Shown here piece by piece: positions 10,305 through 57,687 of a stretch of 64,000 nucleotides of DNA. Where the stretch lies: positions 352,001 through 416,000 of the forward strand of contig JAVZCZ010000001.1 of NCBI GenBank assembly GCA_038874135.1, read 5' to 3'. Made by a program: the position numbers and the translations under genes. The stretch comes from Candidatus Woesearchaeota archaeon (GTDB taxonomy: Archaea; Nanobdellota; Nanobdellia; Woesearchaeales; 0-14-0-80-44-23). Each line of letters opens with the position of its first letter. Within the stretch, counting starts at the first letter, position 1. The notes beneath the pieces are model-generated. The model was not told where the DNA came from and made no database searches. It saw nothing but the letters and a program-made list of their open reading frames with translations.

Positions 10305-10384
10305 GTTGCGATTTGACTGATGATCAATTCAACTATAAGTTTTAATAAGTGCCATCAGGAATTATGTAAGGTGGATAATGCACG

Positions 10385-12430
10385 ATGATAATTGGGAGTG
10401 ATTATTACAACAATATGGACAGGGGATATTATTCTGAAAACTCAGAAGGCAGCGAGCCCGACATTGAAAAGCCCATAGTGCGCATAAGCGAGCTTGGACA
10501 GACAGTTACAGAGGGCAGGGCTGGAGGGGGAACTCTCCTGGACACGATGAGAGCTGCAATATTCAGAGGGGCTGGAAAGGTGGAGCTTCAACTCCAGCAG
10601 GAGGGCTCTGAGCCATTCGTTGGAGCTGAATCGTATGGCAGAGAGATGAGACAGGACATAAGAGACCTATCAAGAGTCAACCAGGTAAGGATAACCAGCA
10701 TACACGCACCAACCTGGGTCGGAAACCTTTCGGGCTATGCTGGCAGGCAGCAGGGATTCAGTGATGAGTACAGAGCAATGCAGGTTGAAGAGATAAAAAA
10801 GGCAATTGACTTCGCTGCGGACACAACAGGAGGCTCAGCAGTTGTGGTTCACACAGGAGAGTTTGAAAGGCCTATAAGCGAGAGTCCCTGGAATAAGAAC
10901 GGCGCTTTTAGGCAGTATGAAGAGGAACCTCAGAAGGCAATGTATTCTCTCGTTGACAGGAGAAGCGGTCATGTAATAAGTGTCATAAGAAAGGACACTC
11001 CTATAATGGTTCCAAAGTGGAAGACGAATGAGAAGGGCGAATTTGTGGATTATGAGGGGAATGTCGTCTCATTCAAAGATAGGGTTCCCGAGTTTGATCC
11101 TAAAAATCCTGAAAAGATAATTATGGAACAAAAGGACTGGAACTATTTTATTAAAGAAGCTGAGATGAGAAACCGGGAGCTTGAGCGCCAAAAGGGCAGA
11201 CCCCTTCTTCCAGATGAAAGAATAACCCCTGAAGAGGCGTTCTATATCTCAATGCTGGACGCTCAGGAAAAAACAGCTAGGGGCTGGGCAATGAACTATG
11301 CACAGGGGATGGAAGAGCAGATAAAGGCGCTGGAAAAGTTAAAAGAGGCGAGAAAGTATTATGAAGAGCTTGAGAAGAGGACTCCAAAAGAGCAGCTGTG
11401 GAAGATAATGAGGGAGGATCCTACAATTAGCAGAATTACAGGAGGAATTGCGCCTTCAGAATACAAGCTTCCAACCCAGTTGATTGACGAGCAGATAAAA
11501 GAGATTAGGGAGAGAATAAATGCTGAAAAAGACATGGTGACTGGACAGTTACAGAGTGCTAAGGAAGCTGAAATTGCAAAGCAGAATGTTATATCACTAG
11601 AGAAGTATGCCAAGAATAAAACCCTGCACTCGTACGCTGAGCTAGGAATATATGCTATGCAGCGAACTGAAGAGGGGATGAAACAAGGAAAGATTGACAA
11701 GCCAATATTCATAGCTCCAGAAAACCTGTTCCCTGAAATGGGCTACGGCAGCCATCCTGAAGAGCTGATAGAGCTTGTAGAAAATGCGAGAAAGAAGATG
11801 GTAGAATACCTCACACAGCCTCAGATTCCAGATCCTTCAGGAGCTTTGGACCCAGCAACTGGAAAGCCTAAAATGATAAACAATCCGTACTACAGGGGAA
11901 TGAGCAGGGAGGAAGCTGAAAAGAAAGCTAGGGAGCATATAAAGGCAACACTGGACACTCAACACTTAGGAATGTGGTTCAAGTATTTCACTCCAAAACC
12001 AGGAGAAACCGAGGAGGAACGCTTCAAGAGATTTGAAAAGTGGTACCTTGAAGAAGTCAAAAAGATGGAAGAAAAGGGGATAATAGGGCACATGCACATA
12101 GTTGACGGATTTGGAAGCGGACATACGCATCTCCCAGCAGGGGAAGGCAGGCTACCTATAAGAAGCGCTGTGGAATATCTAAAGAAAAAGGGCTACACAG
12201 GTACTATGAGCTCTGAAGGCTATGGAGAGCAGGGAAGACAGCTTACCCAGGCGTGGGCATACTTCGGAAGCCCCATCTATCACAGAGCGGCTGTAGAACC
12301 ATCTGCAGCCAGGAGCTGGACTGAGGTTGAACACTCATACTTCTCCCAGATGCAAACGCCATACTTTGTATTCGGAGCATACTCACCTTCTAACGATTGG
12401 ACCCTGTGGAGCGGGGTGCCATTAGAATGA
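10385..12430 (+). CDS. Xylose-isomerase/endonuclease IV-like TIM-barrel metalloprotein with a large insertion
   Basis: Metal-ligand motifs SIHAP, VVVHTGE, APENL, TLDTQH, HMHIVD, HTHLPAGEG, SSEG. Confidence 0.85.
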   Translation: MIIGSDYYNNMDRGYYSENSEGSEPDIEKPIVRISELGQTVTEGRAGGGTLLDTMRAAIFRGAGKVELQLQQEGSEPFVGAESYGREMRQDIRDLSRVNQVRITSIHAPTWVGNLSGYAGRQQGFSDEYRAMQVEEIKKAIDFAADTTGGSAVVVHTGEFERPISESPWNKNGAFRQYEEEPQKAMYSLVDRRSGHVISVIRKDTPIMVPKWKTNEKGEFVDYEGNVVSFKDRVPEFDPKNPEKIIMEQKDWNYFIKEAEMRNRELERQKGRPLLPDERITPEEAFYISMLDAQEKTARGWAMNYAQGMEEQIKALEKLKEARKYYEELEKRTPKEQLWKIMREDPTISRITGGIAPSEYKLPTQLIDEQIKEIRERINAEKDMVTGQLQSAKEAEIAKQNVISLEKYAKNKTLHSYAELGIYAMQRTEEGMKQGKIDKPIFIAPENLFPEMGYGSHPEELIELVENARKKMVEYLTQPQIPDPSGALDPATGKPKMINNPYYRGMSREEAEKKAREHIKATLDTQHLGMWFKYFTPKPGETEEERFKRFEKWYLEEVKKMEEKGIIGHMHIVDGFGSGHTHLPAGEGRLPIRSAVEYLKKKGYTGTMSSEGYGEQGRQLTQAWAYFGSPIYHRAAVEPSAARSWTEVEHSYFSQMQTPYFVFGAYSPSNDWTLWSGVPLE

Positions 12431-47569: not shown

Positions 47570-49072
47570 TTATGCAGCTTTAGGGGATTTATTTTTCTTG
47601 CCCTGAGTTTGTCTTGTTCTCTTAGGCTTTATCTTTTTAGCTTCTTCTTCATAAGACCTCATACGTATCTTAGAATAATTCACAGGGTTCCTTATTTTTT
47701 GACAGAGAGAATCTGGAGTGCATATGCCAATATCTGAGTAATACATCTTATTGGAACAGTTAGGCGGGAGGACCTTCCTACCCCTCTTTTTGTATCTCAA
47801 TTGAGACCTAACATAGTTTTCACGCAGGGGCTCCTTATTGCTCTTATTCCATTCAAGTATGAGTTTTTCAGCATCTGCATAATCCCAGCCCACGCTAGAA
47901 AGAAAGTTTTCAAGAATGAACAAGGCACGCTTACGCCCGTCAGATAAGCCTTTAAGAATGTTCTGTATGCATGGAGGGAAGAACTCTTTTGGAATTGCAG
48001 AAATTTGCATCTCATCTACAAGGTATTCACCAGCATCTTCTCTTTTAACGAACTCTTTTTCCCTCGTATAAAACTCCCAGTCAAAGGCGTTTTTGAACAA
48101 AAGTTCTGCTTCTCCTTCAACTGCATGCTCCCGACAGAGGAATTTAAACCTTGAAGGACTAACCTTTTCGGGCTGAGCGTTCTCCCTCTTAAAACTCATA
48201 ATCTCTTCAACACCTATTGGAAGGCTTACCAGTCCTGATTTCTCATTTATTGAATAAGCCAACCGGTAAAGGTGTCTAGGCGCTATTAGCACCGTGTCAA
48301 TTTCGAGAAATGAACTTATGTTTAGGCGTGGTGGGGGAAGCTCCTTTCCACTACGTATCAAATTCTTATACTCCTCTGGAGAAAGCTGCTTCCAAACCCC
48401 TTCTGAGTTTAAGAATCCATATTCTATTATCTCTGTTTTTCCAACCTTCTTAGCTATTGCGGAAAAGTCGCTGTTTTCAAACTTAAGTATCATCTCAGCC
48501 AGTTTAGGTTTTATCATCTCAGCAATATAGCGAGCTATTGTGCGCGGCGCTTCCGGGAATAAAAGGCGCACTTCTCTTTTCTCAACACGCCCAGTTGCAG
48601 AAAGTACTGGAACATGCTTTGGAAATGCTTCAAAAGGCACTCCAATGTGAAAACCCTTGTTCCCTGAAAACTTTACGCTGACACTTCTTATTCCTAACCT
48701 TTTAAGCTGATTAACAACAAGACTTGCTGCCATTCTGGAATATTCAAACTCTCGGCAGTCAATATCTAACACTAAGTCCCATCCCTCTCTTATTGAATCT
48801 AGGAACTGCCTGTTGGACTCCTGAGTGAGGAGCATCGGATTTTTCCATATTTCTTCTGAAACATGAAAGGAGGTTGCTCCCTCTTTTGCAAACTGCAATA
48901 TATCATTAAGGTAGAGGAGCACATCAGGCCGTTTTCCAAATCCTGAGCTTCCATACCTTACTGCCACTTCCCGCTTTGGGCAGTTGTAAAGCATCTCTTC
49001 TTGTATTTCCCTTCTGGAGTAGTATTCCAATACTTTCTTTCTATCCAGAACAGCTTGCTCCTCCATCTTCAT
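47570..49072 (-). CDS. Fused archaeo-eukaryotic primase PriS-PriL
   Basis: PriS motifs 'WDLVLDID' and 'KFSGNKGFH'; PriL Fe-S motifs 'FPPCI' and 'PPNC...C..D..C'. Confidence 0.92.
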   Translation of the reverse strand: MKMEEQAVLDRKKVLEYYSRREIQEEMLYNCPKREVAVRYGSSGFGKRPDVLLYLNDILQFAKEGATSFHVSEEIWKNPMLLTQESNRQFLDSIREGWDLVLDIDCREFEYSRMAASLVVNQLKRLGIRSVSVKFSGNKGFHIGVPFEAFPKHVPVLSATGRVEKREVRLLFPEAPRTIARYIAEMIKPKLAEMILKFENSDFSAIAKKVGKTEIIEYGFLNSEGVWKQLSPEEYKNLIRSGKELPPPRLNISSFLEIDTVLIAPRHLYRLAYSINEKSGLVSLPIGVEEIMSFKRENAQPEKVSPSRFKFLCREHAVEGEAELLFKNAFDWEFYTREKEFVKREDAGEYLVDEMQISAIPKEFFPPCIQNILKGLSDGRKRALFILENFLSSVGWDYADAEKLILEWNKSNKEPLRENYVRSQLRYKKRGRKVLPPNCSNKMYYSDIGICTPDSLCQKIRNPVNYSKIRMRSYEEEAKKIKPKRTRQTQGKKNKSPKAA

Positions 49073-50547: not shown

Positions 50548-50633
50548 CCCGCAAATCAGATATTCTACAGTTGGCTTATAAACTTTTCCTAACTTAGTTT
50601 AAAATTCTAATATTAGAAAAAATTAGAGAAGTC

Positions 50634-51665
50634 TCAAACTTTTATTTCGCTCTCTTGCAGCCTGCTGCTCAGCTTGTGCCTTTCAAGAGCGTGATAAAGA
50701 ATCCTTCTTATTAAGCCATCATAAGAAAGCCCTGCTGCGCTAGCTGCTCTAGTAAATGCAGTATCATTAGGTCCTATGTCCGGGTTGGGGTTCACTTCAA
50801 GAATGTAAGGATTGTTGTTTGAATCTAAGCGCAGGTCTATCCTTGCATAGTCCTGGCATTCTAGAACACGATATGCTGCAAGTGCCGCCTTCTTTATCCT
50901 GTTTTCAACAGTTTTTGGAATCTGTGCTGGGCAGGTCGGTATTGTGTGCTTGAACTCGTCTGATTCGGGAATCCACTTTGCAGAGTAGGAGCATATCTTC
51001 GGTTGGTTTTCTGAAAAGTTTTGAAATTGAAGCTCTTCAATTGGAAGTGCGGTTGGCTCGCTGTTCCCTAGTATAGAAATGTTAAACTCTCTGCCATCTA
51101 TAAACTCTTCTACCAATGCGTGCTGCTTGTATGTCTCTATTACATAGGCAACTCTCCTTCTCAGCTGCTCTTCATCCCTAACTACAGATTCTTGCGTTAT
51201 CCCTATACTGGCATCTTCATGTATAGGTTTCACTATTAGTGGAAATTTGAGGGTGAGCGGCAATTCTTGTTCTGGAGTGGTAAAGATGTGAAACTTGGGA
51301 GTAGGTATTCCTGCTGAGATTAGTATCTGCTTTGCTCTCGCCTTGTTTAGGCATACTGAAAGTGTTAGGGAGTTTGAGCCAGTGTAGGGTATTCCCATCA
51401 TATCCAGCATTGCGGGGATGTATGCTTCTGCCAAAACATTACTTCCAAAGCCTTCTGCAAGGTTGAAAACTACATCAGGCTTTAGAAGAAGAAGGTTTTC
51501 ATACAAGTTTTGATCAGCCTGCAAGGGTACTGTCTCGTGCCCATCCTTTTTTAGCACCTGTTCAACTGCTCTTACAGTGTTTAGTATGTCCTGATCAGCA
51601 ATTATATCAGCATCCTGTCCTCGCGAAAGCTCGCTCATAAAGTTATAAAGTATTACTACTTTCAT
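50634..51665 (-). CDS. D-Ala-D-Ala-ligase-like ATP-grasp enzyme
   Basis: 'VFNLAEG', 'IPYTGS', 'IVKP..EDASIGI', 'EEFIDGREF', 'ARIDLR', 'LEVNPNP'. Confidence 0.93.
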   Translation of the reverse strand: MKVVILYNFMSELSRGQDADIIADQDILNTVRAVEQVLKKDGHETVPLQADQNLYENLLLLKPDVVFNLAEGFGSNVLAEAYIPAMLDMMGIPYTGSNSLTLSVCLNKARAKQILISAGIPTPKFHIFTTPEQELPLTLKFPLIVKPIHEDASIGITQESVVRDEEQLRRRVAYVIETYKQHALVEEFIDGREFNISILGNSEPTALPIEELQFQNFSENQPKICSYSAKWIPESDEFKHTIPTCPAQIPKTVENRIKKAALAAYRVLECQDYARIDLRLDSNNNPYILEVNPNPDIGPNDTAFTRAASAAGLSYDGLIRRILYHALERHKLSSRLQESEIKV

Positions 51666-52747
51666 TTCCTGCTCCTCTTGTACGCCTGTTCAACCCTCTT
51701 CTGAAGATCCTTTACGACTAAGGATTTCTTGAACTTCATCTTTAAGCCGTACCTCGCCGCTGCGTGGTAGAGCACTGTGTTTATGAGCTGCTCATATGTC
51801 AGGCCCATGGAGTACCACATTGTAGGAAGGTTGCTGTGCTCTTCCGGGTCTGGAATTATTCCCGGAAGTGGGTTTATTTCAAGAACCTGAGGCCTGTTGT
51901 GAGCGTCCATTCGCATGTCAATTCTGCACCAGTCCCTAACATTCAGTGCCTTGTATGTTGCCAGGGCAAGCTCTGATATTCTCTTTCTTAATCGCGAGTT
52001 TATCTTTGCAGGGCAAGACACCATGTTTATCTTGTTCTCCTTAGTGTCCCAGAGCCACTTTGCTTCATAGGAGTAGATGGGATTTGCCCCTTTGGGAAGC
52101 CCGTCAAAGACTAATTCCAAGATTGGAAGCACAACAGGGTTTTCATTTCCGATAACTGCAACTGTGAATTCTCTGCCACTTAGGAAGTTTTCTACAAGTG
52201 CTGGCTCCTCATATTTTGTGATTATTTCGCAAACTTTTTTTCTAAGCTGCTTCTCATTTTTAACGAGAGAATTATTTCTTATCCCCTTGCTGGAGCCCTC
52301 GTAGAGGGGCTTTACAATCATTGGAAATTTTAGCCTGCTGCTAATCTTCTCGTTTCCCTTATAAAAAACTTGAAATGGCGGCGTGGGTATTCCATTCTGC
52401 ATTAGTATCTCCTTTGTCATTGCCTTGTTGAGCCCTATGGACAATGTTGCCGGGTCTGAAGCCGTGTAGGGTATTCCTAAGAGTTCCAACATAGCTGGAA
52501 TTTGGGATTCTCTATTCCTGCCCCTTACTCCCTCGGCTATGTTGAAAACAATATCCGGCTTGAATTTTTTCAGTTTTATAAATGCATTCTCGTCTGCTTC
52601 AATTCTTACTGTTTTAAACCCTCCCTTTCTTATTGAGGATTCTATTGCTGCGATTGTTGTTTCGTCGTCACATTCAGAATAGAAATCTTTTGGGAGCCCC
52701 TTTTTCGGTTTCTTTTTTAGGTTGTAAGTTATTCCTACCAGTGTCAT
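51662..52747 (-). CDS. D-Ala-D-Ala-ligase-like ATP-grasp enzyme
   Basis: 'VFNIAEG', 'IPYTASD', 'IVKPLYEGSSKGI', 'GREFTV', 'RIDMR', 'LEINPLPG'. Confidence 0.93.
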   Translation of the reverse strand: MTLVGITYNLKKKPKKGLPKDFYSECDDETTIAAIESSIRKGGFKTVRIEADENAFIKLKKFKPDIVFNIAEGVRGRNRESQIPAMLELLGIPYTASDPATLSIGLNKAMTKEILMQNGIPTPPFQVFYKGNEKISSRLKFPMIVKPLYEGSSKGIRNNSLVKNEKQLRKKVCEIITKYEEPALVENFLSGREFTVAVIGNENPVVLPILELVFDGLPKGANPIYSYEAKWLWDTKENKINMVSCPAKINSRLRKRISELALATYKALNVRDWCRIDMRMDAHNRPQVLEINPLPGIIPDPEEHSNLPTMWYSMGLTYEQLINTVLYHAAARYGLKMKFKKSLVVKDLQKRVEQAYKRSRK

Positions 52748-52768
52748 TTTGTTTCAACCATTATTACT

Positions 52769-53839
52769 TTAGGGCAGTGGATATTCATATCTTTTTCCTT
52801 CATAATTTCTAAGAATGATTTTTCTCTTCCCATTCTTTTCCTTTTTCTCTCCAAGGTAATACTTGGGCAACAGCGGAATCTTTCCTCCTCCGCCAGGCGC
52901 ATCTATAACATAGTGCGGTACTGCCATTCCACTTGTAAAGCCCCTTAGCGAGTGGATTATTTCAATGCCTTTTGAAACTTCTGTGCGGAAGTGTTTTGTG
53001 CCCTTCACAATGTCCGCCTGATATAAGTAGTAGGGCTTTACTCTCATGCGCAGTAGTTTGTGCACGAGCTCCTTCATTATCTTGGGATCGTCATTTACTC
53101 CTTTTAGAAGCACTGATTGGTTTCCTACGGGAATTCCTGCGTCTGCAAGCATTGTGCATGCCCTTATGCTTTCAGGAGTTATCTCCTGAGGATGGTTGAA
53201 GTGGGTATTTATGTATATTGGGTGATATTTTTTTAGGATGTTGCACAGCTTTTTTGTTATTCTCTGCGGCAGAGCGCATGGCATTCTCGTTCCTATTCTG
53301 ATTATCTCCACATGCTTTATTGCCCTCAAGTTTTTCAGTATGAACTCAATCTTATCATCTGTTAGCATTAGAGGGTCTCCACCTGATATTATTACATCTC
53401 TAACTTCGGGATGACTTTTTATGTATTGAATCCCCTTCTTCATTTCTTCTATTGAGATTTCCCTGTCGGGATGGCCTACTCTTCTCTTTCTCGTGCAGAA
53501 TCTGCAGTACATTGAGCACTGGTTGGACACTAAGAAAAGTACCCTGTCTGGATATCTGTGCACTATTCCTGGAACTGGGCTTTGGTGTTCCTCTTGAAGT
53601 GGGTCTGGAAGTCCTTCTGTGTCTTTCAGTTCAAGCTCGTCCGGGATACACTGCTTCCAAACGGCATCTCCCCTCTTCTTTATTAGGCTTAGATAGTACG
53701 GGTTTACCCTCATTGGATAAACCGAAGCGACTCTTTTTATCGTATTTAGCTCTTTATCCGAGAGCTTGAATTTGGAGAGAGCCTTCTTTAGATTGTTTTC
53801 ATCTTTTGATTCGGAAAGAAGTTTTTGCCAGAGTTCCAT
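52769..53839 (-). CDS. kamA: KamA-family radical SAM/PLP 2,3-aminomutase (lysine-type residues)
   Basis: 'HRYPDRVL', CxxxCxxC 'CSMYCRFCTR', 'SGGDPL', 'HFNHP', 'NQSVLL', 'YQAD', 'DAPGGGGK'. Confidence 0.92.
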   Translation of the reverse strand: MELWQKLLSESKDENNLKKALSKFKLSDKELNTIKRVASVYPMRVNPYYLSLIKKRGDAVWKQCIPDELELKDTEGLPDPLQEEHQSPVPGIVHRYPDRVLFLVSNQCSMYCRFCTRKRRVGHPDREISIEEMKKGIQYIKSHPEVRDVIISGGDPLMLTDDKIEFILKNLRAIKHVEIIRIGTRMPCALPQRITKKLCNILKKYHPIYINTHFNHPQEITPESIRACTMLADAGIPVGNQSVLLKGVNDDPKIMKELVHKLLRMRVKPYYLYQADIVKGTKHFRTEVSKGIEIIHSLRGFTSGMAVPHYVIDAPGGGGKIPLLPKYYLGEKKEKNGKRKIILRNYEGKRYEYPLP

Positions 53840-53857
53840 TTTTCAGTCTTGCCCCTC

Positions 53858-53953
53858 TTAGAAGTACTTAGAAGGTATCACCCGCCCGAAGGCAGTTTTT
53901 AAGAAGGTTTTCTGTTCTTTGTAAGGATAACAGGCACATTTCAGAACTTTCAT
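53858..53953 (-). CDS. Possible 31-aa leader peptide upstream of kamA
   Basis: ATG...TAA ORF MKVLKCACYPYKEQKTFLKTAFGRVIPSKYF; its stop directly precedes the kamA GAGGGG RBS. Confidence 0.35.
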   Translation of the reverse strand: MKVLKCACYPYKEQKTFLKTAFGRVIPSKYF

Positions 53954-54060
53954 TTGTATGTGGGTGTTTTTATCCCGTTGACACCTCGTTGAAACTTTTT
54001 TTATTTGTATGTTAATATGGTATGCTAAGCTTATTTAAATATTTAACTTTTTGAAAAAAA

Positions 54061-54136
54061 TTTCCGACGAGAAAATTTTAAAATTTATGTTTATCAAAAA
54101 TTTGATAAAAAAATTTTGTAATTTTTCCGACGAGAA
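54061..54136. promoter_or_regulatory. Two 13-bp direct repeats flanking a palindrome, upstream of the kamA promoter
   Basis: TTTCCGACGAGAA at 54061 and 54124; TTTATCAAA-AA-TTTGATAAA at 54090-54109. Confidence 0.6.
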
Positions 54137-56949: not shown

Positions 56950-57687
56950 TTATTTCATCTCATAATTGAAGAAGTAGTACGCCCAAGAGAGTATGCCTAT
57001 CAAAAGTCCCCCGATAATTATTAGCGGAATGCTTTTTAAGAGCAGAATTAGAAGCCCTGTGGCTAGCACCGCTGCAAGGGAAAAAGCATAGAGTGGCCTG
57101 GCAGCATAAAGAACCTTGCTGCCATCCAGTGGAGGTATTGGAAGCATTGAAAATAATGCCATTAGCACATTGAATTTTATAGCTAATGGAATTAGGGGGC
57201 TTGGAAGTCCTGAGAAGAACTTGAAGAATAATGCGAGAATAAGATTAGCAACTGGGCCCATCATCGCAATTATTCCCAGAGAGAAGTAGTTTATGTTGTA
57301 TCTGAAGTATCCGAGTCTGTGGCCCGGTAGCATTGTAACTGCGAAACCTCCCAACATCAGTATTGGCAGCCAGCCGTTTGTCAGGAAGCACAGAAATAAA
57401 GATGTGAGTATTCCTGTAAGCCAGAATTGGTATTCCAGCTTGTAGCCTATGTGCAGCGCGTATATCTTCTGAACTGAAACCTTGAAGAGCAGGGAGAGTG
57501 TTATTATTAGAAATGCGTTGAAGAGGTTTCTCAATCCTGCTGAGAAGTCAAAAGTGGCTCCACCCCACTGCCTGAAGGAAAGTATGAAGGCTGATGTGAG
57601 TATTGTTATCAGAAGCGCTCTAATTTCTAACTGAGAAAATTTGAAATGTTCCCTAATCTTTCCGCGGAGGTCGTACAGGGAATACAT
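56950..57687 (-). CDS. Site-2 protease (M50)-like membrane protein with degenerate HExxH
   Basis: 'GPVANL' and 'LPIPPLDGSK' present; the HExxH position reads 'FKVSVQK'. Confidence 0.8.
   Translation of the reverse strand: MYSLYDLRGKIREHFKFSQLEIRALLITILTSAFILSFRQWGGATFDFSAGLRNLFNAFLIITLSLLFKVSVQKIYALHIGYKLEYQFWLTGILTSLFLCFLTNGWLPILMLGGFAVTMLPGHRLGYFRYNINYFSLGIIAMMGPVANLILALFFKFFSGLPSPLIPLAIKFNVLMALFSMLPIPPLDGSKVLYAARPLYAFSLAAVLATGLLILLLKSIPLIIIGGLLIGILSWAYYFFNYEMK

Follow-up and report, generated by a model that had tools for sequence, protein, structure and literature searches.

Two described pathways that use beta-lysine frame the locus treated here. In the AblA/AblB pathway of methanogens and some bacteria (kamA-yodP in Bacillus), a KamA-type aminomutase serves the synthesis of a small soluble product, N-epsilon-acetyl-beta-lysine. 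In gamma-proteobacteria beta-lysine is a modification of EF-P, and EpmB, a KamA homologue of the short form that lacks the C-terminal zinc domain, feeds a dedicated ligase, EpmA. The present locus is a three-gene operon, named KamA, LigA and LigB, in a 64,000-nucleotide stretch of DNA from a Candidatus Woesearchaeota archaeon (contig JAVZCZ010000001.1, positions 352,001 to 416,000; this whole stretch is called the window below), and it joins a KamA-type aminomutase to two ATP-grasp ligases resembling the D-Ala-D-Ala ligase Ddl. Judged from its sequence and from those of its relatives, the operon is on balance likely to be self-contained and to represent the minimal form of a widespread cassette for making a small cationic amide of beta-lysine. 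It resembles the Abl pathway in its aminomutase, for which the AblA model is the best match, and in the acetyltransferase that many cassettes also carry, but the genome of the window (G000) has no AblB, the acetyltransferases (GNATs) of other lineages are not AblB, and two ATP-grasp ligases are foreign to the Abl pathway. The likeness to EpmB/EpmA lies in the short aminomutase and its dedicated ligase; EpmA, however, is a paralogue of lysyl-tRNA synthetase with a protein target, whereas the cassette ligases are ATP-grasp enzymes, and archaea have aIF5A with deoxyhypusine instead, a deoxyhypusine synthase (DHS) being encoded in the host genome.

On the side of the ligases, the Ddl/VanA family (EC 6.3.2.4) belongs by sequence to the same ATP-grasp sub-family, with like residues for ATP, Mg and the transition state, while the cassette ligases differ in scores below the Ddl cut-offs, in changes of the pocket, in the missing Mur context and in their linkage or fusion to KamA. 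Carnosine synthase, an ATP-grasp enzyme that joins beta-alanine and histidine, and MysD, a Ddl-like ligase of mycosporine-like amino acid synthesis with a non-D-Ala substrate, can be likened to them by description as ATP-grasp or Ddl-like enzymes acting on beta-amino or non-D-Ala substrates, although contexts and products differ. The NAGGN pathway reportedly consists of the Ngg GNAT/ATP-grasp enzyme and the AsnO amidotransferase (so Sagot and colleagues are said to have described it in 2010). The fuller cassettes share its toolkit logic, in which an acetyltransferase, an ATP-grasp enzyme and an ATP-pyrophosphatase-type enzyme act on a small peptide, but the enzyme sub-families differ, NAGGN synthesis has no aminomutase and a glutamine-based product, and the host genome lacks both the GNAT and the PP-loop gene. 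Functional precedents come from glutathionylspermidine and trypanothione synthetases and from rhizoferrin synthesis with its FslC-type decarboxylation: an amide bond made onto a polyamine with ATP, related enzymes that carry out two acylations in succession, and an amino-acid moiety that is decarboxylated after ligation; the amine acceptor considered for the cassette, in comparison, comes from gene neighbourhoods alone.

The KamA protein matches the clostridial lysine 2,3-aminomutase (LAM; 2a5h) with 409 bits, and the residues by which that enzyme works can be located one by one. The Fe-S cysteines C108, C112 and C115 form the CxxxCxxC triad, R117 aligns with LAM R134, D276 (in YQAD) and D313 (in VIDAP) correspond to the epsilon-ammonium ligands D293 and D330, and K320 in the GGGGK motif is the pyridoxal phosphate (PLP) lysine, LAM K337. 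The cysteine triad and the equivalents of R134, D293, D330 and K337 are invariant across 72 KamAs of the cassette, and the substrate and catalytic residues of a lysine 2,3-aminomutase are, by this alignment, complete. The initial annotation, made from the letters of the window, had pointed to the same cysteines, lysine and aspartates, and had also remarked that the C-terminal zinc-binding cysteine region was missing; both remarks extend to the relatives. The protein stops at about LAM residue 369, ahead of the zinc ligands Cys375, Cys377 and Cys380, and has Asp at the place of LAM Cys268, and the zinc site is missing in 72 of 72 cassette KamAs, which have no Cys-rich tail and D, N, K or S at the Cys268 position. 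KamA passes the family model TIGR00238 (323.1 bits, cut-off 199.2) and scores best with the AblA equivalog TIGR03820, where its 496.5 bits fall 29 short of the cut-off of 525.4 because the C-terminal part of the model is missing from the protein, the match spanning model positions 20-358 of 417; with the EpmB model it remains below the cut-off (248.3 against 369.3 bits). From its sequence, KamA is best placed, in our reading, in a distinct short sub-family of the lysine 2,3-aminomutases.

LigA and LigB, which are 42% identical and the only two genes of this kind in the genome, both pass PF07478 (Dala_Dala_lig_C; 143.5 and 123.8 bits, cut-off 24), match Ddl structures at E values of about 1e-29 and keep the Ddl N-terminal domain. 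With the best Ddl model of NCBIfam, however, they reach just 193.2 and 185.7 bits against a cut-off of 243, and other Ddl models are further below. In a FastTree tree the ligases split into an A clade and a B clade (support of B 99), each holding archaea and bacteria, and the window's LigA groups with Bathyarchaeia LigA. The Atlas holds a confident model of LigB (pTM 0.90). For a comparison of the pockets, 88 LigA and 71 LigB sequences were aligned with E. coli DdlB (from NC_000913), whose numbering is used here. Both ligases retain K97, K144, E180, E187, K215, R255, D257, E270 and N272, and since the ATP-grasp catalytic residues are all kept, both should be catalytically competent. Both also depart from Ddl at H63E, Y216W, M259R and G252D, the first two changes being family-wide, and LigA in addition has E68R while it retains E15, S150, G276 and S281. 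The two paralogues differ from each other at just five strongly conserved positions, all in pocket loops (DdlB G149, S150, T189, S274 and G276), where LigA has Gly, Ser, Thr, Leu and Gly and LigB has Asp, Ala, Asn, Asn and Asp. Across the LigB family the changes G149D (99%), S150A (90%), G276D (97%) and S281A (83%) prevail; the LigB of the window, in its own numbering, has gained D151 and D296, has A152, and carries T302 at the position of S281, where 83% of the family have Ala. DdlB S281 is presumably a ligand of the second substrate's carboxylate. The acceptor of LigA would, on these alignments, carry a carboxylate, and the LigB substrate would be more cationic and without one.

The same three genes recur far beyond this archaeon. 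A scan across 185,579 species genomes yielded over 579 LigA relatives, and in the neighbourhoods of the best 80 loci KamA and/or LigB adjoin LigA in 77, from at least ten phyla. A sample of 151 genomes from the window's own order (two of them, G121 and G132, are unpublished and enter these counts only) gave a ligase match in 26; where a close KamA is present, in 18 genomes, the ligases accompany it in 15, and in 12 they are on the same contig. The trio was found in Bathyarchaeia, Nezhaarchaeota, Bacteroidota, Ignavibacteriota, Nitrospinota, Planctomycetota and others, in different arrangements: KamA-LigA with a convergent LigB in Bathyarchaeia and Nezhaarchaeota, LigA-LigB-GNAT-KamA in Bacteroidota, Ignavibacteriota, Kryptoniota, Chlorobiota and Planctomycetota, and KamA-LigA in Nitrospinota. 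One carrier of the whole cassette is a metagenome-assembled genome of Ignavibacterium album (L080). Five delta-proteobacterial genomes without an adjoining KamA have a KamA of the cassette type elsewhere. The nearest syntenic relative, L033 (from a record titled Candidatus Woesearchaeota archaeon CG07), is 69-79% identical to the window in the three proteins, with the order KamA-LigA-LigB-MurL-like-LemA-M48-primase-GyrA, and its LigA joins the window's among those of Bathyarchaeia in the tree. The cassette, defined as a short KamA closely linked to one ligase of each clade, is present as such in the window. The remark in the initial annotation that bacteria have similar clusters is borne out, but its suggestion that the host is part of the novelty does not survive, the cassette being a common one among Bathyarchaeia and other archaea and no oddity of the DPANN.

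Protein fusions tie the three activities together. Single proteins of about 700 aa that join KamA and LigA occur in G021, G065 and G073 (loci L028, L029 and L030), further KamA-LigA fusions stand among the longer homologues (P0209-P0214), and hundreds of these longer homologues are double-ligase proteins, including those of about 728 aa in cultured Anaeromyxobacter (A. dehalogenans and relatives; P0159-P0161 and P0165), annotated as D-Ala-D-Ala ligase. One protein of 944 aa (P0149) combines two ligase modules with a GNAT domain, and the Atlas lists clusters of LigB-GNAT fusions with 282 and 142 members, to be taken as a lead only. Fusions and gene order together suggest an order of action KamA, LigA, LigB, GNAT, and support the view that KamA, LigA and LigB belong together functionally, as a unit for making beta-lysine and ligating it. 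This bears on the earlier proposal that the paralogous ligases form a heterodimer or act in sequence: since neither paralogue has lost a catalytic residue, a heterodimer with one catalytically dead member is unlikely, and successive action is what the fusions and gene order suggest.

Cassettes of other lineages are accompanied by genes that could tailor the product. A GNAT of 162 aa is found in 35 bacterial cassette loci and a distinct one of 174 aa in 17 loci of Bathyarchaeia and Nezhaarchaeota; these are short RimI-like or Acetyltransf_3 proteins, the RimI-like match being the best one and weak. An M24 peptidase lies 3' of KamA in 11 loci. In Woesearchaeota the cassettes instead have a protein with a PP-loop-like motif, SxGKDS, that is about 450 aa long and bears a weak likeness to the MurL epimerase (E values from 5e-8 to 2e-9), a family that accompanies the cassette in ten loci of Woesearchaeota/Nanoarchaeota type. 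In some Woesearchaeota cassettes an AR-fold decarboxylase and a third ATP-grasp enzyme are present as well. The other neighbours seen in Bathyarchaeia (TFIIB, PdxA, PIN, amidase and Ogg) are housekeeping genes and were not counted as members.

The window holds the bare core, with no tailoring gene, and is in this respect the minimal form of the cassette. In L033 a 465-aa PP-loop protein like MurL (UDP-MurNAc-L-Ala-L-Glu epimerase) is encoded at 10340-11737, exactly between LigB and LemA, where the window has merely the 86-nt spacer 50548-50633; as no MurL-like gene was found in the host genome, its presence at this place in the relative suggests that it was lost. In tblastn searches of the same genome no convincing match came up for the cassette GNATs of bacteria and Bathyarchaeia, for the M24 peptidase or for the pyruvoyl arginine decarboxylase (ADC), AblB (TIGR03827) gave no match, and there are just two weak GNAT matches, inside frames of 606 and 412 aa. 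The genome is a single contig of 909,956 bp from a hot-spring metagenome, 99.4% complete, and the archaeon is a tiny, host-dependent organism of the symbiont type (0.91 Mb).

Some cassettes are linked to genes of polyamine synthesis. In about ten loci of metagenome-assembled genomes labelled Thermodesulfobacteriota or Myxococcota, spread over two LigA clades, a gene for a DHS homologue is followed by those for an agmatinase homologue, pyruvoyl ADC, LigA and LigB; in one of them (L071, 2837-7449) all four junctions of speY-speB-pyruvoyl ADC-LigA-LigB are 4-nt overlaps, and in loci of this type the genes next after LigB encode a methyltransferase, a small membrane protein and two GT4 glycosyltransferases. 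The genes speY-speB-ADC constitute an experimentally demonstrated, agmatine-dependent pathway of homospermidine synthesis (PMC13625781). A Nitrospinae locus has the order ADC-LigB-GNAT-KamA-LigA. In the host genome itself an operon of DHS, an AR-fold PLP decarboxylase and an agmatinase lies about 150 kb from the cassette (genome positions 554420-557260; L114, 3420-6260). Its decarboxylase, of 341 aa, is lysA-like and far below the lysA cut-off, and the operon is probably a module for the deoxyhypusine of aIF5A or for agmatine, so that the cell should have agmatine or putrescine at its disposal. The decarboxylase that accompanies the cassette in relatives was considered as an orthologue of this one and rejected, at 23% identity. 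The speY-speB-ADC linkage, the decarboxylases of Woesearchaeota cassettes and the acidic LigB pocket make an amine or polyamine acceptor plausible.

A pathway can be proposed from these elements. In the first step, which the sequence supports well, KamA would turn L-lysine into beta-lysine. Since no DHDPS was found in the host genome, where the alpha-aminoadipate route was not searched for, the lysine is probably imported. LigA would then form the first amide bond involving beta-lysine; the fusion of this paralogue to KamA in relatives is what puts it first. Of the Ddl residues that hold a substrate carboxylate it has retained Ser and Gly, and its partner would therefore carry a carboxylate. 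The second amide bond would be formed by LigB with a more cationic partner, as suggested by the two Asp gained and the carboxylate-binding Ser lost, and the candidates are the LigA product and either an amine, for which agmatine, putrescine and homospermidine are examples, or a side-chain amine. This would yield a small beta-lysine amide or pseudopeptide with positive charge, polyamine-like and no cell-wall precursor, which other lineages may tailor by N-acetylation (GNAT) or by the MurL-like PP-loop enzyme, the window's lineage having presumably dropped this tailoring. That such products form a new class of cationic metabolites, with beta-lysine amide-bonded to an amine or polyamine (agmatine, putrescine or homospermidine, for instance), is a tentative idea that may well not hold. 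Several points weigh against the proposed pathway: the pockets were compared through sequences aligned with E. coli DdlB, the two ligations are placed in order by fusions and gene order alone, no polyamine gene adjoins the cassette in the host genome, in Bathyarchaeia or in Bacteroidota, and the link to amines comes from few bacterial lineages, in which it could reflect related physiology and not a shared substrate.

The product could also be a pure di- or tripeptide or short oligomer of beta-lysine, kept as a compatible solute or storage compound on a logic like that of NAGGN and with no polyamine in it, which we regard as doubtful and yet the most serious of the rivals. The Glu that holds the donor ammonium is kept in both ligases, and the extra Glu at H63 could bind the second ammonium group of a diamino acid; the GNATs of the 35 bacterial and 17 Bathyarchaeia loci, the PP-loop enzyme of Woesearchaeota, the lack of an adjoining polyamine gene in most lineages and the hot-spring source all agree with such a peptide. 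A LigB pocket that has lost the carboxylate Ser and gained two Asp, however, fits an acceptor without a nearby carboxylate, LigA-LigB is translationally coupled to speY-speB-ADC, and an organism with neither GNAT nor PP-loop enzyme would be left with an uncapped and strongly cationic peptide, an unusual compatible solute. The initial annotation had proposed a beta-amino-acid di- or oligopeptide, of which the ligation of beta-lysine stands, while the restriction to a peptide needs qualifying, the context (speY-speB-ADC-LigA-LigB and the decarboxylases) speaking for an amine or polyamine acceptor no less than for a pure peptide. A different substrate for KamA, arginine or glutamate, would lead to beta-arginine or beta-glutamate. 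The scores with the glutamate and arginine 2,3-aminomutase models are high (464.8 bits, cut-off 650, and 362.4 bits, cut-off 600), and AblA is missed by 29 bits, but the AblA model scores best and comes nearest to its cut-off, and the two epsilon-ammonium Asp of 2a5h, which glutamate 2,3-aminomutases reportedly replace (Ruzicka and Frey are said to have found this in 2007), never vary in the cassette KamAs, which makes this alternative improbable.

It is a little less probable still that the ligases put beta-lysine, or a peptide based on it, on a protein such as a translation factor or ribosomal protein, by analogy with EF-P or RimK. The RimI-like match of the cassette acetyltransferase and the DHS homologue next to the ligases in some bacteria may be read in this way, but those bacterial homologues are homospermidine enzymes of the SpeY type, the DHS for the archaeon's own aIF5A is encoded elsewhere in its genome, no conserved gene for a target protein adjoins the cassette, and the ligases are closest to Ddl, an enzyme of small molecules, including its N-terminal domain. 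The least probable explanation, with hardly any chance of being correct, is that LigA and LigB are ordinary ligases for D-Ala-D-Ala, or D-Ala-D-X, in a peptide of the cell-wall type, next to KamA by chance. Their best named matches are indeed Ddl models and Ddl structures, and LigA retains S150, G276, S281 and R255. Both nevertheless score below every Ddl cut-off (193 and 186 against 243), H63E and Y216W mark the whole family, and the linkage or fusion to KamA recurs across phyla, including bacteria expected to have their own Ddl. Moreover, the nearly complete single-contig genome has no Mur_ligase_M match, and its sole Ala_racemase_N match is an open reading frame (ORF) of 240 aa, too short for an alanine racemase and of a length that would fit a YggS-type protein; given these two results, a D-Ala-D-Ala function is very unlikely. 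The earlier reading of the pair as something other than true Ddl agrees with the scores, the pocket changes and the missing Mur ligase.

A full-text literature search found no description of the cassette or its product. The cassette is a real, conserved and biochemically uncharacterised pathway: all three enzyme families are well known, and what is conserved, and has been fused again and again, in many phyla of bacteria and archaea is their combination. Being so widespread, it probably stands for a common and overlooked metabolite. If the beta-lysine amide involves a polyamine or other amine, it would amount to a second, widespread route to polyamine-like molecules, important enough for a symbiont-type archaeon of 0.91 Mb to keep its bare core. 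What the window adds is the minimal architecture and the link to polyamine genes, while the archaeal host adds little novelty. In a closed genome it offers the smallest natural version of the cassette, three genes behind a single promoter without any tailoring enzyme, and therefore a clean construct for heterologous expression, and the link to homospermidine genes narrows the candidate acceptor substrates.

The coordinates of the operon and its borders are collected in the table. The KamA stop codon is followed after 21 nt by the ATG of LigA, and the LigA stop and LigB start overlap as ATGA; ORF coordinates and junction sequences agree with the three-gene operon that had been called from the letters. 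Because of this gap and overlap, together with a TATA-like box upstream and the T-run spacer downstream, the three genes look like one transcription unit, the spacer being its likely end. The box, TTTAAATA, lies at 54032-54039, 193 nt from the kamA ATG, a distance from which a leader of some 165-170 nt can be inferred. A structured leader was considered and found no support, as an Rfam search of the leader gave no match at E <= 1 and its folding energy was no better than that of shuffled sequences (z = -0.08).

Table. Features of the KamA-LigA-LigB operon in the window
Feature	Positions	Strand	Description
KamA	52769-53839	minus	356 aa, P0001; radical-SAM/PLP enzyme read as lysine 2,3-aminomutase, short form without zinc site
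LigA	51662-52747	minus	361 aa, P0002; Ddl-like ATP-grasp ligase, A clade; paralogue fused to KamA in relatives
LigB	50634-51665	minus	343 aa, P0003; Ddl-like ATP-grasp ligase, B clade, more acidic pocket
Operon upstream region	53840-54136	minus	297-nt spacer with TATA-like box and two copies of a 13-mer
Spacer 3' of LigB	50548-50633	minus	86 nt with T-run, then LemA

Upstream of kamA the 13-mer TTCTCGTCGGAAA occurs in two exact copies on the minus strand, 63 nt apart (54061-54073 and 54124-54136), and there are three exact occurrences in the whole 0.91-Mb genome, the third at genome position 183047. The first of the copies upstream of kamA stands directly after the Hef stop codon, and the copy at 183047 follows an unrelated gene, 1 nt from its stop. 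This first copy and the TATA-like box are kept in L033, which has near-copies of the 13-mer at the matching place and in the KamA-LigA spacer. The element could be an operator or a 3'-end signal.

The genes around the operon encode Hef, an Hjc-like nuclease, LemA, an M48 peptidase, a primase and GyrA, with no known KamA partner among them; as the initial annotation had stated, neither an EpmA-like gene nor one of lysine fermentation is present among these neighbours, nor is AblB, which is missing genome-wide. A 245-aa ORF on the minus strand at 56950-57687, with no Pfam match at E <= 0.001, adjoins the Hjc-like gene also in L033. The primase gene, at 47570-49072 on the minus strand, encodes a protein of 500 aa that matches the primase small subunit over residues 114-287 and the large-subunit domain over residues 351-470, which suggests a fused PriS-PriL primase.

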